Shown here: piece after piece, positions 884 through 49,233 of the stretch
Numbering within the stretch: the first letter of the stretch is position 1
How the letters are laid out: every line of letters begins with the position of its first letter
Origin: Candidatus Nomurabacteria bacterium RIFCSPLOWO2_01_FULL_39_18
GTDB lineage: Bacteria > Patescibacteriota > Minisyncoccia > Phycocordibacterales > UBA9973
Assembly (NCBI GenBank): GCA_001787005.1
Contig: MFUV01000009.1
Span: 1,929 to 61,772, forward strand
Length of the DNA: 59,844 nucleotides
Direction of reading: 5' to 3'
Program-made: the position numbers and the translations under genes
Notes under the pieces: generated by a model
Seen by the model: the letters and a program-made list of their open reading frames with translations, nothing else
What the model was told of the DNA's origin: nothing
The model's database searches: none

Positions 884-1123
884 ACTACCAATATTATATA
901 TTGACTTTATCCACATTTTGATTAGTATGTATTTTAACGAGCGTTTGTTATAATTATCCTAATGGGACGTCATTAATAATTGAGAATTGATTCTTAGTTT
1001 TTTTAGGAATTAGCTCTTATTAATTAATGGTGAAATTATTAAAAGAATAACATAAGAGGTCGGAAAGGTTTTTTCCTTTTGTTTTTTTGAAAATTATTGT
1101 TAGGTAAGTACAGGAAGTAAATG

Positions 1124-1209
1124 TGGGCTTAACGAGATTCGAACTCGTACAACCTAGGCAGGATAGTGGTTTTGGAGACCACCGCGTCTACCAATTCCGC
1201 CATAAGCCC
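1124..1209 (-). tRNA. 86-nt type-II-like tRNA (Leu-like body) with anticodon CCA
   Basis: Reverse complement is GGGCTTA-TG-GCGGAATTGGTAGACGC-G-GTGGT-CTCCAAA-ACCAC-(17-nt variable region)-ACGAG-TTCGAAT-CTCGT-TAAGCCC-A. The D arm GGCGGAATTGGTAGACGCG is the bacterial tRNA-Leu signature. The anticodon loop has U33, then CCA, then A37. The discriminator is A73. Confidence 0.65.
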
Positions 1210-5971: not shown

Positions 5972-6025
5972 CCTCACCCCTTCGCCCCTCTCCTTGTCAA
6001 GGAGAGGGGTTGGGGGAGAGGTGAA
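5970..6025. repeat. Family-1 nested palindrome, copy B (intergenic, SEDS/folD)
   Basis: GACCTCACCCC-TTCG-CCCCTCTCC-TTGTCAA-GGAGAGGGG-TT-GGGGGAGAGGTGAA. Confidence 0.85.
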
Positions 6026-6032
6026 TTATTAT

Positions 6033-6914
6033 ATGGAAATTATTGATGGGAGGAAATTAAATAAAGAAATTTTGGGAAAAGTGAAGGCGGAGGTCGTTTC
6101 GCTTTCCTTCCAGCCGATTTTTTGCGATGTCTTGGTGGGGAGCGACCCGGCAAGTGTTCAGTATGTGGGGATGAAAGCAAAAACGGCAGAAGCGGTGGGG
6201 ATGAAATTTCACAGTGCGAATTTCCCCGCATCCATAACCACGGAGGAGCTGATAAAAGAAATAAAAATTCTGAACAAAGTAGAAAATATGTGCGGAATAA
6301 TTATTCAGCTTCCATTGCCTCCTCATATTGAAAAACAATTAGCGCTTGACGCTCTTGACGTGCATCTTGATGTGGACTGCCTGGGTACGATAGCGAGTGA
6401 AAAATTTTATCAAGGTGAAACCTTGATAAAATATCCTACTGCGCTGGCTTGTATGGCGCTTCTTGATTCAATTAATTTAGACTTAACGCAGAAAAAAATA
6501 GTTGTTTTTGGGCAGGGGATGCTGGTGGGCAAGCCTGTGACAGCCCTGCTCAAATTTAGAAATTTGTCGCCAACAATTATTACTAGCAAAACTTCCGATA
6601 AAGAAAAAATTATTAAGCAAGCAGATGTTATAATTTCAGGCATAGGGAAGGGGAAATACATTACAGGTGATATGATTAAAGAAGGAGCAGTTTTGATTGA
6701 TGCTGGAACTTCTGAATCCGGAGCCGGCATCGTGGGCGATGTTAATTTGGAGTCTGTCAAAGATGTGGCAGGATTTGTTTCTCCCGTGCCCGGCGGCGTG
6801 GGGCCCGTAACTGTGGCCATGCTTCTCAAGAATGTGTTAACCGTGGCGAAGAACAAAGACCTCACCCCAGCCCCTCTCCTTGTAAAGGAGAGGGGAAGAG
6901 AGATTTTTAAATAA
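6033..6914 (+). CDS. folD: Bifunctional methylenetetrahydrofolate dehydrogenase/cyclohydrolase
   Basis: MEIIDGRKL..., GIIIQLPLP and VPGGVGPVTVAMLLKNV are present. The start was moved to the ATG at 6033 because the upstream 27 codons only translate the palindrome. The C-terminal tail DLTPAPLLVKERGREIFK is encoded by repeat copy C. Confidence 0.85.
   Translation: MEIIDGRKLNKEILGKVKAEVVSLSFQPIFCDVLVGSDPASVQYVGMKAKTAEAVGMKFHSANFPASITTEELIKEIKILNKVENMCGIIIQLPLPPHIEKQLALDALDVHLDVDCLGTIASEKFYQGETLIKYPTALACMALLDSINLDLTQKKIVVFGQGMLVGKPVTALLKFRNLSPTIITSKTSDKEKIIKQADVIISGIGKGKYITGDMIKEGAVLIDAGTSESGAGIVGDVNLESVKDVAGFVSPVPGGVGPVTVAMLLKNVLTVAKNKDLTPAPLLVKERGREIFK
6858..6895. repeat. Family-1 palindrome, copy C (left outer arm plus inner palindrome only)
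   Basis: GACCTCACCCC-AG-CCCCTCTCC-TTGTAAA-GGAGAGGGG. The right outer arm is absent. Confidence 0.8.
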
Positions 6915-13260: not shown

Positions 13261-14172
13261 ATGGCTACGCTTTATACTCACCAAACTCAAAATATTACAA
13301 AAACTTGGATTTTAATGACCTTGTTTTTTGTCGTTATCATCGGGCTCGGCTGGTTTTTTAGTTTTTATTACGGCAATCCAGACATTCTATATTTTTTTGT
13401 TGCCTTCAGTATTCTGATGAATATTTTCTCATATTGGTTTTCAGATAAAATTGTTCTGACACTCGCAGGGGCAAAGCTAGCCAAGAGGGAAGAGTATTTT
13501 GATCTATATACCAGCGTTGAGAATCTTTCAATTACGGCTGGGCTACCGATGCCGAAAGTCTATGTAGTGGAAGATCCAGCGCCGAATGCTTTCGCCACAG
13601 GGCGGAACAAAGAGCATGCTGTCGTCTGCGTCACGACCGGGCTTCTTAAAATTTTAGAGAAAAATGAGCTAGAGGGCGTGATAGCCCACGAGCTCTCCCA
13701 TATCGGCAATCGTGATATGTTGCTTTCTACTGTTGTGGTGGTGCTGGTTGGTTTTGTTTCCATTATTGCAGATGTGTTCAGGCGCAATTTATTTTTTAGC
13801 AGGAGCAGAGACAGCGACAATAAAGCGCAAGGTATAATTTTGCTTATCGGAATAATTCTTTCAATTTTAGCGCCGATTTTTGCCATACTTATCCAGCTGG
13901 CCATCTCTCGCAAACGCGAATTTCTAGCAGATGCCTCCGGAGCATTGCTCATGCGCTATCCAGAAGGACTCTCTAATGCATTGCGTAAAATTTCTCAGAA
14001 TAGCAAACCGATGACTCGCCAATCCAATACTATTGCGCATCTATACATTGCCGACCCGAAAGGAACTGGAGTTGGCCTGCCTGCGCAGGCAGGCAAAAAA
14101 ATCAGCGGCCTCTTCGCTACCCATCCGCCGGTAGAAGAGAGAATCAAGGCTTTGGTTGGACAAAAGGAATGA
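13261..14172 (+). CDS. htpX: M48 zinc metalloprotease HtpX
   Basis: Has HELSHIGNRD (HExxH), four TM segments and a C-terminal LFATHPPVEERI. Confidence 0.9.
   Translation: MATLYTHQTQNITKTWILMTLFFVVIIGLGWFFSFYYGNPDILYFFVAFSILMNIFSYWFSDKIVLTLAGAKLAKREEYFDLYTSVENLSITAGLPMPKVYVVEDPAPNAFATGRNKEHAVVCVTTGLLKILEKNELEGVIAHELSHIGNRDMLLSTVVVVLVGFVSIIADVFRRNLFFSRSRDSDNKAQGIILLIGIILSILAPIFAILIQLAISRKREFLADASGALLMRYPEGLSNALRKISQNSKPMTRQSNTIAHLYIADPKGTGVGLPAQAGKKISGLFATHPPVEERIKALVGQKE
14075..14094. repeat. Family-2 palindrome (GCCTGCCTGCGCAGGCAGGC), in frame inside htpX
   Basis: A perfect 20-bp palindrome that encodes GLPAQAG. Related copies lie at 31152, 31216, 31619 and 48224. Confidence 0.8.
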
Positions 14173-16725: not shown

Positions 16726-17042
16726 TTGCGGGAGGCCGAATCGAACGGCCGTCTCAAGGTTATGCTTTACCACCATAGTTTTCACTACCCTTCAAATACT
16801 TTTAGGTTTGTGGTCTGGACTATACCATCTCCTTTTTTGAAAAACCAAAATTAAGGAGCTCATCGTCTAGTCTCTACACTTTTATTTCTGAAAAAATTCA
16901 GAAAATTTAGCTCGGAATTGTCTTTCTGTTTTCTCACAGAGAGGATTTCTCCGAATTTGATGAGTTCATACCTCAAAGTTTCCCAAGAGGGGGCCCATAG
17001 AATAACGCTGAGCCTTGCGAGATGCCTCTTCTCTATCCCGCT
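16726..17042 (-). tRNA. tRNA-Met(CAU), initiator-like, split by a 246-nt group I intron in the anticodon loop
   Basis: Exon 1 is AGCGGGA-TA-GAGA-AGAGGCA-TCTC-G-CAAGG-CT. Exon 2 is CATAA-CCTTG-AGAC-GGCCG-TTCGATT-CGGCC-TCCCGCA-A. The acceptor resembles E. coli tRNA-fMet (CGCGGGG/CCCCGCAA), with an unpaired 1:72 position and A73. Confidence 0.7.
16765..17010 (-). ncRNA. Group I intron (ORF-less) in the tRNA-Met anticodon loop, between U33 and C34
   Basis: The 5' exon ends in U and the intron ends in G. Exon GGCU can pair with intron GGCC (P1, with a U.G pair). GTAGAGACTAGAC and GGTATAGTCCAGAC match the R and S (P7) consensus elements. Confidence 0.7.
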
Positions 17043-21288: not shown

Positions 21289-21361
21289 GCCACCCTAGCT
21301 CAGTTGGTAGAGCACGACTTTCGTAAAGTCGGGGTCCGCAGTTCGATCCTGCGGGGTGGCT
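21289..21361 (+). tRNA. tRNA-Thr(CGU)
   Basis: GCCACCC-TA-GCTC-AGTTGGTA-GAGC-A-CGACT-TTCGTAA-AGTCG-GGGTC-CGCAG-TTCGATC-CTGCG-GGGTGGC-T. It abuts the previous tRNA and the following ATG. Confidence 0.85.
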
Positions 21362-21362
21362 C

Positions 21363-21614
21363 ATGCCATATTATGTTTATTTTTTAAAAAGTTTGAAAGA
21401 TGGAAGATATTATGTTGGCGTCTCAAACGATGTAACAAGACGATTAGAAGAACACAATAAAGGACTTTCAAAATTTACAGCGCCTTTTAGTCCTTATGAA
21501 TTAAAAAGAGTTGAAAAATTTGTCAAAATAGAGGATGCTTATAAAAGAGAAAATTTTATTAAGAAAAAGAAAAGCAAAAAAATTATTGAATTAATTATTA
21601 ATTCGCCGATATAG
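21363..21614 (+). CDS. Mini GIY-YIG nuclease-domain protein
   Basis: Has YYVYFLKSLKDGRYYVGVSNDVTRRLEEHN (GIY...YVG...R...H/N). It is wedged between two tRNA-Thr(CGU) genes with no spacer. Confidence 0.75.
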   Translation: MPYYVYFLKSLKDGRYYVGVSNDVTRRLEEHNKGLSKFTAPFSPYELKRVEKFVKIEDAYKRENFIKKKKSKKIIELIINSPI

Positions 21615-21740
21615 TCCCGATGCTCTTGCATAGCAAGAAATCGGGATCCCGATTTCGCGAAAGCGAACATCGGGACTCAGCTGGCAGAACACTACTTTCG
21701 TAAAGTAGGAACGTGGGTTCGATTCCCACTTTCGGCTCCA
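21605..21740 (+). tRNA. Second tRNA-Thr(CGU)-like gene, interrupted after nt 10 by a 61-nt double hairpin. May be a pseudogene
   Basis: GCCGATA-TA-G[61 nt]CTC-AGCTGGCA-GAAC-A-CTACT-TTCGTAA-AGTAG-GAAC-GTGGG-TTCGATT-CCCAC-TTTCGGC-T-CCA. The acceptor stem pairs at 6 of 7 positions. Confidence 0.45.
21615..21675. repeat. Family-3 tandem hairpins (TCCCGAY...RTCGGGA, two units)
   Basis: TCCCGAT-GCTCTTGCATAGCAAGAA-ATCGGGA followed by TCCCGAT-TTCGCGAAAGCGAAC-ATCGGGA. Related units lie at 35355 and 37418. Confidence 0.75.
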
Positions 21741-22565: not shown

Positions 22566-23490
22566 TGATACACACGATATAGATGAACAAATTAGGAAAC
22601 TAGAGGAAGGTATGGCACTTCCGGATTTTTGGAATGATAAGGTTAAGGCGCGGGCGGTACTCCGAGAACTGGCGGAGCTGAAGAATAAAAAGGAAGGCTT
22701 AGGAAAATATGATAAAGGCAATGCCATACTTACAATAATTTCTGGCGCGGGCGGAGACGATGCCGAAGATTTCTCCGCTATGCTTTTGTCGATGTATCTG
22801 AAATATGCTGACAGAAAAGGATGGGGCATTTCTTTTATTCATGAACACAAGAATGATCACGGGGGTTATAGGAATACCACAATAGAAATTTCTGACCCCA
22901 CCCTTCGCCCTCCCCTTGCCAAGGGGAGGGTTGGGGAGAGGTCGGGTCCCTACGGGACCTTGAAAAACGAATCCGGCGTGCACCGCCTGGTGCGCATTTC
23001 TCCCTTTAATGCCAAGAAGCTACGCCACACGTCCTTTTCTCTAGTTGAAGTTTTGCCGAAATTTTCAAAATTAGAAGAACGCGATGTGGCTATACCTGAA
23101 GCGGATTTAAAAATAGAATTTGCTCGCTCGTCAGGCCCGGGAGGTCAAAATGTGAATAAAAGAGAAACAGCTGTCAGGATTGTGCACGTGCCGACCGGCA
23201 TTTCTGCGCAAGCTTCCGGCGAACGCTCCCAAGAACAGAATCGTGAGTCTGCTCTGTCCATCTTGCGGGCGAAGATCTTCAAAAAAGCGCAGGATGAGAA
23301 AAAGAGCATTGAGGAAAGCTTGAAAATAAATAAAGGCACAGAAATAGAATGGGGGAGTCAGATACGTTCATACGTACTTCATCCTTATAAAATGGTCAAA
23401 GATCATAGAACTGGAGCGGAGACTTCGAACATTGATGCGGTTTTGGATGGTGATATAGACTTATTTGTGGATGCAGAAAAAGACTTGTAA
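22534..23490 (+). CDS. prfB: Peptide chain release factor 2 (short form, no recognisable +1 frameshift site)
   Basis: Has SPF (HRLVRISPFN), GGQ (SSGPGGQNVNK) and WGSQIRSYVLHPY. At 318 aa it has a much reduced domain 1. Alternative starts are at 22546 and 22558. Confidence 0.85.
   Translation: MVWEMTKIMPDDTHDIDEQIRKLEEGMALPDFWNDKVKARAVLRELAELKNKKEGLGKYDKGNAILTIISGAGGDDAEDFSAMLLSMYLKYADRKGWGISFIHEHKNDHGGYRNTTIEISDPTLRPPLAKGRVGERSGPYGTLKNESGVHRLVRISPFNAKKLRHTSFSLVEVLPKFSKLEERDVAIPEADLKIEFARSSGPGGQNVNKRETAVRIVHVPTGISAQASGERSQEQNRESALSILRAKIFKKAQDEKKSIEESLKINKGTEIEWGSQIRSYVLHPYKMVKDHRTGAETSNIDAVLDGDIDLFVDAEKDL
22894..22944. repeat. Family-1 palindrome, copy E, a 51-nt in-frame insertion in prfB
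   Basis: GACCCCACCC-TTCG-CCCTCCCC-TTGCCAA-GGGGAGGG-TT-GGGGAGAGGTCG encodes DPTLRPPLAKGRVGERS, between TIEIS and GPYGTLKNESGVHRLV. Confidence 0.85.
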
Positions 23491-31118: not shown

Positions 31119-31151
31119 ATTTATAATATCACGAGCTGCGGGACTTGGAGT

Positions 31152-31170
31152 CCATGCCTGCGCATACAGG
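31152..31170. repeat. Family-2 palindrome, degenerate copy
   Basis: CCATGCCTGCGCATACAGG. Confidence 0.5.
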
Positions 31171-31215
31171 GAACCAAGATTCATTGCTCCAGAGGCAATT
31201 TGCCTACCGTTAGAC

Positions 31216-31231
31216 CTGCCTGCGCAGGCAG
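31216..31231. repeat. Family-2 palindrome copy
   Basis: CTGCCTGCGCAGGCAG, a perfect 16-bp palindrome. Confidence 0.75.
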
Positions 31232-31263
31232 ACGATCTCCCAATATCTGATTCCTGCACAGAG

Positions 31264-31334
31264 CTGGGAGACTTGGATTCGAACCAAGATGACACCCTCC
31301 AGAGGGGTGAATCCTACCATTAGATGATCTCCCA
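31264..31334 (-). tRNA. tRNA-Gln(CUG)
   Basis: TGGGAGA-TC-ATCT-AATGGTA-GGAT-T-CACCC-CTCTGGA-GGGTG-TCAT-CTTGG-TTCGAAT-CCAAG-TCTCCCA-G. U1:A72 and G73 are typical of bacterial tRNA-Gln. Confidence 0.85.
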
Positions 31335-31407
31335 GCTCTGCGCGGGAACTACTATTATTCAATTTCAAAATTTTTTATTATTTTTTCCTTTTCAATTCTC
31401 TTGTTTT

Positions 31408-31602
31408 TTAGAGCCTTTCATAACTTCTGGCCTCCTTTTCTGAGCTAAATTCTTTTTTAAAAATTAAATGAAATGGTCTATAAGCTTTTGTCGACAGAAC
31501 TCTACCTTCATTGTGTTCCTTAAAGCGTGTAGATAATCTATTTGTACTACCTACGTAATACCATTTCTTAATAGAACTTTTTAGCATGTATACGTACCAC
31601 AT
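31408..31602 (-). CDS. Mini GIY-YIG nuclease-domain protein (C-terminally short)
   Basis: Encodes MWYVYMLKSSIKKWYYVGSTNRLSTRFKEHN.... Its ATG lies 2 nt after a tRNA-Gln 5' fragment. Confidence 0.7.
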   Translation of the reverse strand: MWYVYMLKSSIKKWYYVGSTNRLSTRFKEHNEGRVLSTKAYRPFHLIFKKEFSSEKEARSYERL

Positions 31603-31604
31603 AT

Positions 31605-31646
31605 GTCCTACCGTTAGACCTGCCTGCGCAGGCAGGCGATCTCCCA
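31605..31646 (-). pseudogene. tRNA-Gln 5' fragment (acceptor plus D arm) with a family-2 palindrome after nt 10
   Basis: TGGGAGA-TC-G[CCTGCCTGCGCAGGCAGG]TCT-AACGGTA-GGAC, followed directly by the GIY-YIG start codon. Confidence 0.55.
31619..31636. repeat. Family-2 palindrome copy
   Basis: CCTGCCTGCGCAGGCAGG, a perfect 18-bp palindrome. Confidence 0.8.
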
Positions 31647-48204: not shown

Positions 48205-49233
48205 TTACTCTTCTTTTTTATCTCCTGTCTGCGCAGGCAGGTCTTTTTTTTCTCCCTTATGCCCATGAGCATCAACTTCGTAGGAAGTATTTTGTTGTTC
48301 AAAGAAGTTTACCAGTTCAAAAACGTCTGTCGCGGTGGACATCCACTTGGCTGGATTGGTTACGCCGAAATGCGCCTCAAGTCCCAGCTCTTCGAGTCTT
48401 CTGTCTGCTACGTATTGCACGTATTGATTTACATAGTCCGCGTTTAACCCCAGGATTCCTTTAGGGAACATGTCTTTATTGTAATTAACTTCCAAGTCAA
48501 CTCCTTCAATAATTATATTTCTGATTTCTTCAGCAAACTCCGCAGTTAGAAGTTCTGCGTTTTCTTCGAGAACTGTGTGGATGAGCTGGATGCCAAACTT
48601 CAGATGAAGACTTTCGTCGCGGAGCACCCAGTTTATCAAAGAACCAAAATTACGTAGTTGGTTTCTTTGTCTGAAGGATAAGGCAACCATAAACCCTGAA
48701 TAAAACCAAATTCCTTCCATGACTATATTATACGCAACGAGGTTGCGGATGAAATCTTTTTTTCCTTCTGTGGTTTCAATATCGAGCGATTGTTCGGTCA
48801 TTCTTGTCAGATATTGATTAATGAAGGCTTCCTTTCTTTGCATTGAAGGAAGTTCAAGATGAGTATCGTAGACCTTGCTTCTATCAAGAGGAAAAGTCTC
48901 AAGAACATATTCAAAAGCCACACAGTGGTTTGCTTCTTCGAACATTTGTTTTGCCAGGTACAGGTGACATTCAGGTGATTTAAGATATGGGTATACGCCC
49001 AGGGCGAGAGTTCTATTCACAATAAGCTCAGCCGGATTAAAAAATGACATTAAAAACTGAACAGCAAATCTTTCATCGCTTGTCATTGATTTCCAATCGG
49101 CCAGGTCCTCCCCGAGCGCTATTTCATGAGGAAACCAGCTGTTTCTGACAGCTTGGTTATAGAGCTCGTAAGCCCATTTGTACTTCATGGGGTGTAAATT
49201 TACATCCGTTGGAGATGTTTTTCCTAGAATCAT
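48205..49233 (-). CDS. nrdB: Ribonucleotide reductase class I beta subunit
   Basis: Has di-iron ligand motifs FEEANHCVAFEYV and MEGIWFYSGF...RDESLHL. The tail DLPAQTGDKKEE is encoded by a family-2 palindrome. Confidence 0.9.
   Translation of the reverse strand: MILGKTSPTDVNLHPMKYKWAYELYNQAVRNSWFPHEIALGEDLADWKSMTSDERFAVQFLMSFFNPAELIVNRTLALGVYPYLKSPECHLYLAKQMFEEANHCVAFEYVLETFPLDRSKVYDTHLELPSMQRKEAFINQYLTRMTEQSLDIETTEGKKDFIRNLVAYNIVMEGIWFYSGFMVALSFRQRNQLRNFGSLINWVLRDESLHLKFGIQLIHTVLEENAELLTAEFAEEIRNIIIEGVDLEVNYNKDMFPKGILGLNADYVNQYVQYVADRRLEELGLEAHFGVTNPAKWMSTATDVFELVNFFEQQNTSYEVDAHGHKGEKKDLPAQTGDKKEE
48224..48241. repeat. Family-2 palindrome copy in the nrdB 3' end
   Basis: CCTGTCTGCGCAGGCAGG, with one mismatch. 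Confidence 0.7.

Follow-up and report, generated by a model that had tools for sequence, protein, structure and literature searches.

The locus described here raises the question of why a small nuclease gene should lie between a piece of a tRNA-Gln gene and a complete copy of the same tRNA. We analysed a 59,844-nucleotide (nt) stretch of contig MFUV01000009.1 from Candidatus Nomurabacteria bacterium RIFCSPLOWO2_01_FULL_39_18, hereafter called the window. In it, an open reading frame (ORF) for a GIY-YIG protein, g1, is preceded by the 5' part of a tRNA-Gln that is interrupted by an 18-nt palindrome (PAL), and is followed by an intact tRNA-Gln(CUG). The answer we prefer, with a probability of roughly 60%, is that a tRNA-Gln gene has here been taken over by a selfish cassette of very small size, consisting of a Slx1/UPF0213/Ssn-like GIY-YIG gene and its own GC-rich 18-nt PAL. 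The whole insert measures ∼ 330 bp, and cassettes with the same palindrome occur in dozens of Patescibacteria species of many lineages (38 related loci).

The 5' fragment (31646-31605, minus strand) begins with tRNA-Gln nt 1-10 (TGGGAGATCG, 31637-31646), 45 nt from a divergent Ser-hydrolase gene, which is the expected place for the 5' end of a tRNA and its promoter. PAL copy 1 (CCTGCCTGCGCAGGCAGG, 31619-31636), a perfect palindrome with no orientation, separates nt 10 from nt 11. It is followed on the minus strand by a D-arm remnant (TCTAACGGTAGGAC, 31605-31618) that extends from nt 11 to about nt 24-26, then by AT and the ATG of g1 at 31602. The g1 ORF (31408-31602, minus strand) encodes 64 amino acids plus a stop codon and matches Pfam PF01541 with E = 8.6e-16. 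The intact tRNA-Gln(CUG) (31264-31334, minus strand) was called by ARAGORN and by the Rfam tRNA model (53.7 bits). A third tRNA-Gln(CUG) copy (31136-31242, minus strand) is a pseudogene with two 18-nt palindromic inserts, a PAL at nt 10/11 (TCTGCCTGCGCAGGCAGG, 31232-31215) and a variant, PAL-c, in the T-loop (CCTGTATGCGCAGGCATG, 31170-31153). The fragment, the nuclease start, the intact tRNA and the third copy had all been placed at these minus-strand positions by an earlier sequence-only reading, and all four were recovered there. That reading had also taken the resemblance to tRNA-Gln as real, and it is indeed beyond chance: the 40-nt string of fragment plus palindrome occurs twice in the window (39/40 identical) and never in 100 shuffles, and its 9-mer core CTGCGCAGG occurs eight times in the window against an expectation of 0.12.

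The intact tRNA is enclosed by an inverted repeat (TCCCGCGCAGAGC at 31335-31347, partner GCTCTGTGCAGGA at 31264-31252, minus strand) that adds 13 nt on each side beyond the acceptor and lengthens the stem to ∼ 20 bp (DNA fold z = -5.7). One related locus, L008, has GCAGAGC/GCTCTGC in its place. At a permissive Rfam threshold the intact tRNA was the sole genuine match at the tRNA-Gln locus; a match to the miRNA-hairpin family mir-1419 was rejected as spurious, being due to this inverted repeat.

One genome per species was scanned with an alignment of close homologues, which gave 80 loci, 38 of them in the clade linked to tRNA-Gln (the Gln clade). A tRNA-Gln lies within a few nt of the stop codon, or overlaps it, in 35/38 of these loci (14 CUG, 21 UUG); the remaining three are truncated at contig edges. 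The linkage between GIY-YIG gene and tRNA gene that the sequence-only reading had pointed out is general, and extends to the other tRNA targets described below. Upstream, the arrangement tRNA-Gln nt 1-10, PAL, nt 11 to about 26 precedes the ATG by 12-44 nt in 36/38 loci, with a perfect 18-mer in 27 of those 36. L008 and L021 are without the upstream fragment; in both, a second, full-length tRNA-Gln follows the intact one and has PAL at its nt 10/11. L008 bears an additional palindrome in the anticodon loop. PAL also lies downstream of the nuclease gene in the window, L008, L021 and L033. The acceptor of the fragment tracks the local tRNA (7.74/8 positions identical vs 6.05/8 for non-local tRNAs; permutation p<1e-4). 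The conserved unit is PAL at nt 10/11, the D-arm remnant, the ORF and a complete tRNA copy. The idea of mere chance similarity, or of a pseudogene decaying in the ordinary way beside an unrelated small ORF, could appeal to the general AT-richness of the region and to nothing more. It is refuted by the shuffle controls, the recurrence in 38 independent species-level genomes and the permutation test, and we give it practically no weight.

The palindrome is the best conserved part of this unit. Among 28 full-length loci, mean pairwise identity is 0.972 for PAL, compared with 0.60 for the DNA of the ORF, 0.417 for its third codon positions and 0.585 for the protein. Since the identity of PAL is far above that of third codon positions, we regard it as a selected part of the element, not as a scar. 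The most conserved stretch is TCG-PAL-TCTAA, in which the TCTAA beside PAL is at least 93% conserved, and conservation drops toward the ATG. The palindromes had first been read as incidental interruptions or decay; this view must be abandoned for a sequence that recurs in 36/38 loci at 97% identity. A Shine-Dalgarno role was considered for the GGTAGGA ahead of the ATG and lost ground, as the motif lies in the least conserved part of the fragment. The 3' edge of the fragment is variable (nt 26 in most loci, ∼ 30 in L019, ∼ 31 in L034 and ∼ 36 in L007), while the position of PAL is constant.

Empty sites show the direction of change. Fourteen Gln-clade loci sit behind dnaX. Six DnaX homologues that are 67-72% identical to the DnaX of L019 mark loci L084-L089, and 6/6 of these are empty: the dnaX stop codon is followed by ∼ 12-16 nt that include a TAGAAT/TATAAT-like box, and then by an ordinary tRNA-Gln(UUG); nuclease gene and palindrome are both absent. 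L019, which is filled, has the same box, then nt 1-10, PAL, nt 11-30, 17 nt, the ORF, 4 nt and an intact tRNA-Gln. Because six related genomes show such clean dnaX-tRNA-Gln sites, we conclude that the cassette is an insertion, and because the L019 fragment occupies the tRNA start of the empty sites, that the 5' fragment is the native start of the tRNA gene, still in promoter position. The proposal that the nuclease gene had inserted at about position 26 of a tRNA-Gln gene is upheld as to the insertion itself; a simple insertion at nt 26 does not agree with a 3' edge that falls at ∼ 26, 30, 31 or 36. The promoter assignment is based on position and on -10-like boxes picked by eye. PAL has no copy in 84 kb of other loci, empty sites included. 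When the neighbouring Ser-hydrolase was used for a synteny search of JGI metagenomes, two loci were recovered; in neither does a tRNA-Gln adjoin the gene, so that there is no empty site for the lineage of the window itself; an exact-protein look-up of the same hydrolase found the same locus alone (L001, identical). Contig joints between the two 40-nt repeats were single short contigs and gave no evidence of an excised or empty form.

The protein is a member of the GIY-YIG superfamily by Pfam PF01541 (E = 8.6e-16 as given above for g1, and 8.8e-14 for g2, the second nuclease ORF of the window). Y5, Y16, G18, R26, H30 and E62 are invariant in 17 aligned sequences and include the conserved Tyr, Tyr-x-Gly, Arg and Glu of the superfamily. 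Intact homologues have 80-83 amino acids (82 is typical) and form a single compact domain with no auxiliary domain in the AlphaFold model of homologue P0002. Among proteins of solved structure, the closest in sequence are BH0048 (E = 2.5e-8) and EF2693, both of UPF0213, with Slx1 next. The AlphaFold (AF2) model of P0002 (pLDDT 91.9) has the GIY-YIG fold, with TMq values of 0.58-0.71 to BH0048 and Slx1 nuclease domains; its fold matches reach E values of 3e-4 to 1e-2 for UPF0213/Slx1 vs ∼ 0.5-0.7 for UvrC/I-TevI. Sequence and model thus both indicate that the nuclease is a stand-alone Slx1/UPF0213-type GIY-YIG domain. In the 2006 superfamily survey, minimal bacterial GIY-YIG proteins belong to the Slx1 lineage and are kept separate from the lineage of homing enzymes and UvrC (PMC1564403). 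BH0048 (1ZG2) and EF2693 (1YWL) share with the cassette protein its size, the lack of an auxiliary domain and the absence of the C-terminal Asn of the UvrC lineage; they differ in that neither a function nor a genomic rule is known for them (Dunin-Horkawicz et al., 2006; PMC1564403). The survey notes no linkage to tRNA genes, only the fusion of a prokaryotic Slx1-like GIY-YIG domain to a TrmH-like tRNA methyltransferase (Gm18, D-loop) (PMC1564403). This fusion hints at a second, independent link between the Slx1-like lineage and the tRNA D-arm. Other searches were negative: the cassette encodes no HUH/Y1 transposase, the GIY-YIG gene being its only ORF; PADLOC found no defence family; and among IMG/VR viral contigs there was no PAL cassette, the 14 distant GIY-YIG matches not being beside tRNAs.

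Gene callers run the ORFs of P0001, P0003 and P0010 upstream into the tRNA fragment and palindrome (LGDRLPAQAGLTVGH-M..., ...GAGRSNGRTY-M... and MVGL-M..., respectively). Because callers extend ORFs in this way, many database entries of the family have false N-terminal extensions. The nuclease clade is related to 9,230 clusters at 50% identity, and many cluster representatives of the family match only from residue 20-35 onward. For annotation this means that ORFs are stretched into the tRNA fragment, and interrupted tRNA copies are overlooked by tRNA finders.

The family assignment bears on the chief rival to our reading, a classical free-standing homing endonuclease of the SegB/I-TevI type, which would make a double-strand break at the tRNA-Gln D-arm and be copied by repair from a filled allele, with PAL and ORF as an immunity scar. 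Much of the distribution would suit it: the presence/absence polymorphism at a highly conserved target, both tRNA-Gln isoacceptors struck at the same position, hairpins in the D-arm region in every clade, and degenerate copies of the kind that a homing cycle leaves. There is also a precedent. T4 SegB is a GIY-YIG homing enzyme whose gene lies in a tRNA gene cluster with filled and empty alleles; it recognizes a conserved tRNA-gene motif, in the T-arm, and spreads itself together with neighbouring tRNA genes (PMC2330249). The likeness ends with the protein. SegB and I-TevI are phage enzymes of the HEase/UvrC lineage that have a separate DNA-binding domain, cut double-stranded DNA and have no palindrome, whereas the cassette nuclease is chromosomal and a bare Slx1/UPF0213-type domain; no separate DNA-binding domain is present in its ∼ 82 amino acids, sequence and fold group it away from I-TevI/UvrC, and NCBIfam TIGR01453 gives 20.9 bits, below the cutoff of 56. 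The state of the target in carriers points both ways. PAL splits the fragment site, but in most loci an intact tRNA with an identical D-arm lies ∼ 330 bp away and would be cut; the intact copy of the window has A, not G, at nt 10. Finally, a mere scar needs no 97% sequence conservation and would not recur in T-loops, in anticodon loops, nested in itself or in coding sequences, as described next. We consider a homing enzyme of this type unlikely.

Two solo copies of PAL lie in protein genes of the window. One is in frame in an M48 (HtpX-like) peptidase gene (14076-14093), where it encodes ..GVG-LPAQAG-KK.., and the other (CCTGTCTGCGCAGGCAGG, 48224-48241) is likewise in frame, in the minus-strand gene for the small subunit of ribonucleotide reductase, and encodes ..D-LPAQTG-DKKEE* in the C-terminal tail. 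Both use the same reading frame, LPAQ(A/T)G, which is reminiscent of the Rickettsia palindromic elements. PAL is nested within PAL in four loci (L020:2432-2467, L029, L036:2440-2475 and L039), the inner copy being an 18-nt variant that always follows position 7 of the outer one, and palindromes are found in the anticodon loop (L008) and the T-loop (window) of redundant tRNA copies. Two 18-nt variants, CCTGCCCGCGCAGGCGGG and CCTGCATGCGCAGGCATG, recur in different genomes; they follow the pattern A-B-CG-A'-B', in which positions 5-8 are complementary to 15-18, and do not have simple hairpin symmetry. The insertion points (TCG|TCT, TTC|GAC, TTG|GAG, CCT|GCG and others) revealed no common target sequence. 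Judged by where it is found, PAL appears to behave as a small mobile sequence.

The third tRNA copy of the window shows what PAL may do to a resident tRNA gene. As it stands, it is called by neither ARAGORN nor Rfam and has no uninterrupted cloverleaf with a paired acceptor stem. With both 18-nt inserts removed in silico, ARAGORN recognizes a tRNA-Gln(ctg) of 72 nt whose acceptor has two mismatches and whose D stem has 3 bp. Its first 40 nt, PAL included, are 39/40 identical to the 5' fragment; the fragment agrees with this copy and not with the intact tRNA, which differs at nt 10, 16 and 25. The acceptor 5' strand is TGGGAGA, as in the fragment and the intact tRNA. The 3' strand, TCCCGCA, pairs perfectly with TGCGGGA, the commonest acceptor of the other loci, and the two mismatches are exactly the two differences between TGGGAGA and TGCGGGA. 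The 3' part of the copy matches the tRNA of L027 at 39/45 positions vs 35/45 for the intact tRNA of the window. The weakened acceptor stem, read at first as a sign of decay, is better explained as the signature of a chimera. Taken together, these alignments suggest that a resident tRNA-Gln had a segment of fragment plus PAL copied into its 5' part.

One might ask whether the palindrome-bearing copies are nevertheless functional, their hairpins being removed or tolerated as in intron-like or expanded tRNAs, with the fragment as one half of a split tRNA. The inserts are exactly 18 nt and lie in or beside the D, anticodon and T loops, their removal restores the cloverleaf, and the source genome does have an intron-containing tRNA(CAU). 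Even so, every interrupted copy has an uninterrupted one beside it, what is usually found is a fragment of just 26 nt, protein genes contain the same 18-mer, and the third copy of the window combines two acceptor mismatches with a chimeric origin. Bacteria, moreover, are not known to have the archaeal splicing endonuclease. Functional copies of this kind are highly improbable.

The cassette of the window is itself damaged. Alignment of the DNA with homologues shows that g1 was shortened by a 1-nt deletion near 31411/31412. The homologues have 80-83 amino acids and end in ...YERLLKDKRIEKEKII.., a tail that the window encodes in another frame, and the last 18 codons of g1 persist out of frame down to 31355. 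Logan contigs assembled independently from four metagenome runs match 31262-31631 without a difference; since these four runs give the identical sequence, the frameshift is real. ORFs are also damaged in L009, L015 and L043. By the sequence of its parts, the cassette in the window appears to be old: its nuclease gene is frameshifted, and the neighbouring resident tRNA-Gln(CUG) would have been killed by the transfer of fragment plus PAL and by the T-loop palindrome.

Such losses are relevant to the possibility that the unit is a domesticated, mostly vertical module with a host function. PAL could then set the expression of the nuclease and of a co-transcribed tRNA-Gln, as an operator, an attenuator or an RNA 5' hairpin, or it could serve as a mark for single-stranded DNA restriction that limits replacement of the locus during DNA uptake, a role that has been proposed for NTS and SsnA in Neisseria. 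The ORF is indeed under purifying selection (amino-acid identity 0.585 vs 0.42 at third positions) with invariant catalytic residues, PAL lies between the presumed tRNA promoter and the ATG and is predicted to form an RNA hairpin, the nuclease and DnaX agree at shallow depth, and in the window PAL copies lie on both sides of nuclease gene and tRNA, as in the NTS-gene-NTS arrangement (PMC11893778). The module is, however, cleanly missing from the nearest dnaX relatives of L019 (6/6), some copies have become pseudogenes, that of the window among them, and there is no overall correlation with the host marker. Moreover, selection on the stem alone would permit covariation, but the sequence of PAL is invariant; and PAL behaves selfishly in destroying redundant tRNA copies and inserting into coding sequences. 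Overall, nuclease and DnaX identities are uncorrelated (Spearman 0.15), a comparison that is weak at depth. The distribution of the cassette, as far as these sequence comparisons reach, is probably patchy with some vertical descent. A host module is distinctly unlikely as the explanation of the locus.

How a selfish cassette of this size might spread is suggested by the Ssn nucleases (CDD cd10448), single-domain GIY-YIG proteins of ∼ 94 amino acids that bind their hairpin repeat only as single-stranded DNA and cut upstream of the repeat (Chenal et al., 2025, Nat Commun, PMC11893778). On the model of SsnA, the cassette nuclease would bind PAL as a hairpin in single-stranded DNA, during replication or DNA uptake, and would cut nearby. 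Repair by recombination or gene conversion over tRNA-derived homology could copy hairpin and gene into tRNA-Gln genes and make local duplications, and arrangements that keep one intact tRNA would be the only survivors of selection. We interpret the complete downstream copy as the one that maintains the supply of tRNA-Gln in the cell. Transcription of the cassette probably starts at the captured tRNA promoter and includes the downstream tRNA. The two solo PAL copies would have landed in frame in protein genes.

The parallels with Ssn and NTS are several. Both systems have a single-domain GIY-YIG protein (∼ 80-95 amino acids) whose gene is flanked by a GC-rich hairpin repeat that recurs in the genome, and in both the nuclease clades and the hairpin sequences change together. 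The ssn genes are typically flanked by their own hairpin repeats, and an analogy with REP/RAYT and insertion sequences (IS) has been drawn for them (PMC11893778); a comparable IS-like order of repeat, gene and repeat is complete in some loci here (the type C loci, and the window with PAL, gene, tRNA, PAL). There are differences as well. The SRM consensus is unmatched here, PAL is an 18-nt perfect palindrome without orientation and has few genomic copies, and the hosts are Patescibacteria. The cassette lies inside tRNA genes with partial duplication of the target, and the term 'tRNA' has no occurrence in PMC11893778. That the nuclease works like Ssn is a reasonable inference by analogy; that it is an Ssn is not established. 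A stand-alone GIY-YIG nuclease with cognate hairpin repeats is known, and our literature search found no paper that links stand-alone GIY-YIG genes of this kind to tRNA genes. What is new is their lodging in tRNA genes with partial target duplication.

Several observations weigh against the selfish-cassette reading or against parts of its mechanism. The published SRM consensus (HGTCWYN(0-2)YYVSBRHN(0-5)WNVSBRGN(0-2)RNCYNB) is matched nowhere in the window, nor in 352 kb from the 80 related loci. PAL is orientation-less, whereas NTS is directional, and only two solo copies occur in 60 kb vs hundreds for NTS. For the authors of the Ssn study, UPF0213 and Slx1, the nearest solved relatives here, are families separate from Ssn (PMC11893778). 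In most loci the intact tRNA shares its D-arm sequence with the interrupted copy, yet is spared. Nuclease and DnaX identities agree for the closest pairs (L023/L026 and L019/L017), so that much of the spread may be vertical. As to expression, a scan of the locus for sigma-70 and terminator consensus sequences found no match, also upstream of the fragment, and the Shine-Dalgarno-like GGTAGGA before the ATG is degraded in several loci.

The selfish cassette also resembles other mobile elements in part. With REP/RAYT (IS200/IS605-like Y1) and the Rickettsia palindromic elements it shares a small gene flanked by palindromes that it presumably mobilizes, and scattered repeats, some of which are nested and some read in frame within protein genes (here LPAQAG and LPAQTG). 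It differs from REP/RAYT in that the enzyme is a hydrolytic GIY-YIG nuclease, not a HUH/Y1 transposase, so that strand transfer would need host repair, and in that the repeats are shorter (18 nt) and far fewer. Like integrase islands and prophages, the cassette uses a tRNA gene as a landing site, and the duplicated tRNA piece preserves a functional copy. Unlike them, it has no integrase, is ∼ 330 bp long, duplicates the 5' and not the 3' part of the tRNA, and leaves a copy interrupted by a hairpin.

A bolder and more tentative possibility, to which we would give something like one part in three of our belief at most, is that nuclease gene and PAL form an autonomous mobile element on single-stranded DNA, a hydrolytic counterpart of REP/RAYT or a form resembling a mobile ancestor of Ssn. 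Such an element would recognize folded, cloverleaf-like single-stranded tRNA genes, plant its hairpin site-specifically (at nt 10/11 in tRNA-Gln and tRNA-Thr) and cause tRNA copies to be duplicated, replaced and killed in Patescibacteria as well as in other phyla. If this were so, the loci would provide the first natural evidence for a role of an Ssn-type nuclease outside Neisseria.

Other tRNA genes are targets of related nucleases. The window holds a second case, 10 kb away, which the sequence-only reading had taken, correctly in substance, as an independent repetition of the pattern; the logic is the same, but the parts stand in a different order. The 83-amino-acid ORF g2 (21363-21614, plus strand) begins right after an intact tRNA-Thr(CGT) (21289-21362), and its stop codon TAG is formed by nt 8-10 of the next tRNA-Thr copy, an overlap also found in relatives that are 84-86% identical. 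That copy, a tRNA-Thr(CGT) (21605-21740, plus strand), is interrupted between nt 10/11 by two tandem hairpins (21615-21646 and 21647-21675), each of the form TCCCGAT...ATCGGGA and 61 nt together (DNA fold z = -6.0); ARAGORN calls tRNA-Thr(cgt) once both are removed. The full order in the window is tRNA-Thr(GGT), intact tRNA-Thr(CGT), g2 and hairpin-interrupted tRNA-Thr(CGT). In the 84-86% relatives, tRNA-Thr nt 1-10, two TCCCGA..TCGGGA hairpins and nt 11-16 come first, followed by tRNA-Thr(GGU), the ORF and an intact tRNA-Thr(CGU). The window thus has its hairpins in the downstream tRNA-Thr(CGU) instead, and an additional intact CGU copy upstream. A relative of g2 with 46% identity has the same arrangement with tRNA-Asp.

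In more distant loci of the species scan, the ORF likewise has copies of one tRNA on its two sides, one partial and interrupted by a hairpin, the other intact. Such sandwiches involve Pro(GGG), in two gammaproteobacterial metagenome-assembled genomes, Ser(GCU), Ser(GGA) and a His-like tRNA, and Glu, Phe and Asp; with Gly, Cys or Ser, the intact tRNA is upstream and a 3' fragment downstream. The stop codon is often inside the tRNA in these distant clades. The hairpins are always in the D-arm region, at clade-specific positions (8/9, 10/11, 15-17 and 21), and the arms CCTGCCTGC/GCAGGCAGG are common to the Gln-linked and the Ser/His-linked clades. In a neighbour-joining tree the proteins cluster by tRNA target. 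Other distant family members lie within a split palindrome, between inverted repeats (L038, L040, L044, L045, L051, L055, L057, L058, L061 and L068; L069, L070, L076, L077 and L081). These repeats are of the TTTACCCCCACACCAAAT...ATTTGGTGTGGGGGT or the ACCCCGTTAGAGAT type, and the repeat-gene-repeat layout is that described for ssnA. In L040 (∼ 2420-2470), more than 13 CAGG units lie just 3' of the GIY-YIG gene; the block repeated in the arms of PAL is likewise CAGG.

Stand-alone GIY-YIG proteins (UPF0213, COG2827-like, Ssn) exist in thousands; SsnA is the only one with a known activity. The loci described here amount to a natural experiment: the genomic rule is precise and repeats itself, filled and empty sites are cleanly distinct, and an 18-nt hairpin that hardly varies is the candidate for recognition. 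If our reading is correct, such nucleases act, or once acted, as mobile elements for which tRNA genes are safe places to land. Odd pieces of tRNA, tRNA genes copied in tandem and tRNA pseudogenes split by hairpins would then have an explanation where they occur in reduced genomes, and there would be a defined pair of enzyme and site (an 82-amino-acid protein and an 18-nt palindrome) for single-stranded DNA tools.

Some further features of the window stand apart from the cassette. A second, unrelated family of GC-rich palindromes, CCCCTCTCCTTG(T/C)(C/A)AAGGAGAGGGG with longer complementary flanks GACCTCACCCC...GGGGAGAGGT, is present in four copies (35-59, 5985-6009, 6871-6895 and 22908-22930), some of them at gene ends. 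The intron-containing tRNA(CAU) mentioned above (∼ 17040-16730, minus strand; 5' half GCGGGAT...CAAGGCTCA, 3' half TAACCTTG...TCCCGCA) is missed by ARAGORN. Its anticodon loop holds a group I intron found by Rfam (16791-17020), a second kind of mobile element in a tRNA gene of the source genome. A group I intron match also adjoins the 3' end of the 23S rRNA, where two 5S rRNA matches lie ∼ 1.1 kb apart (143-354, 399-642, 731-837 and 1875-1979). Finally, an 87-nt tRNA called as Trp (CCA) at 1123-1209 (minus strand) has a D-arm that resembles that of tRNA-Leu and a long variable arm, which is unusual for a bacterial tRNA-Trp.

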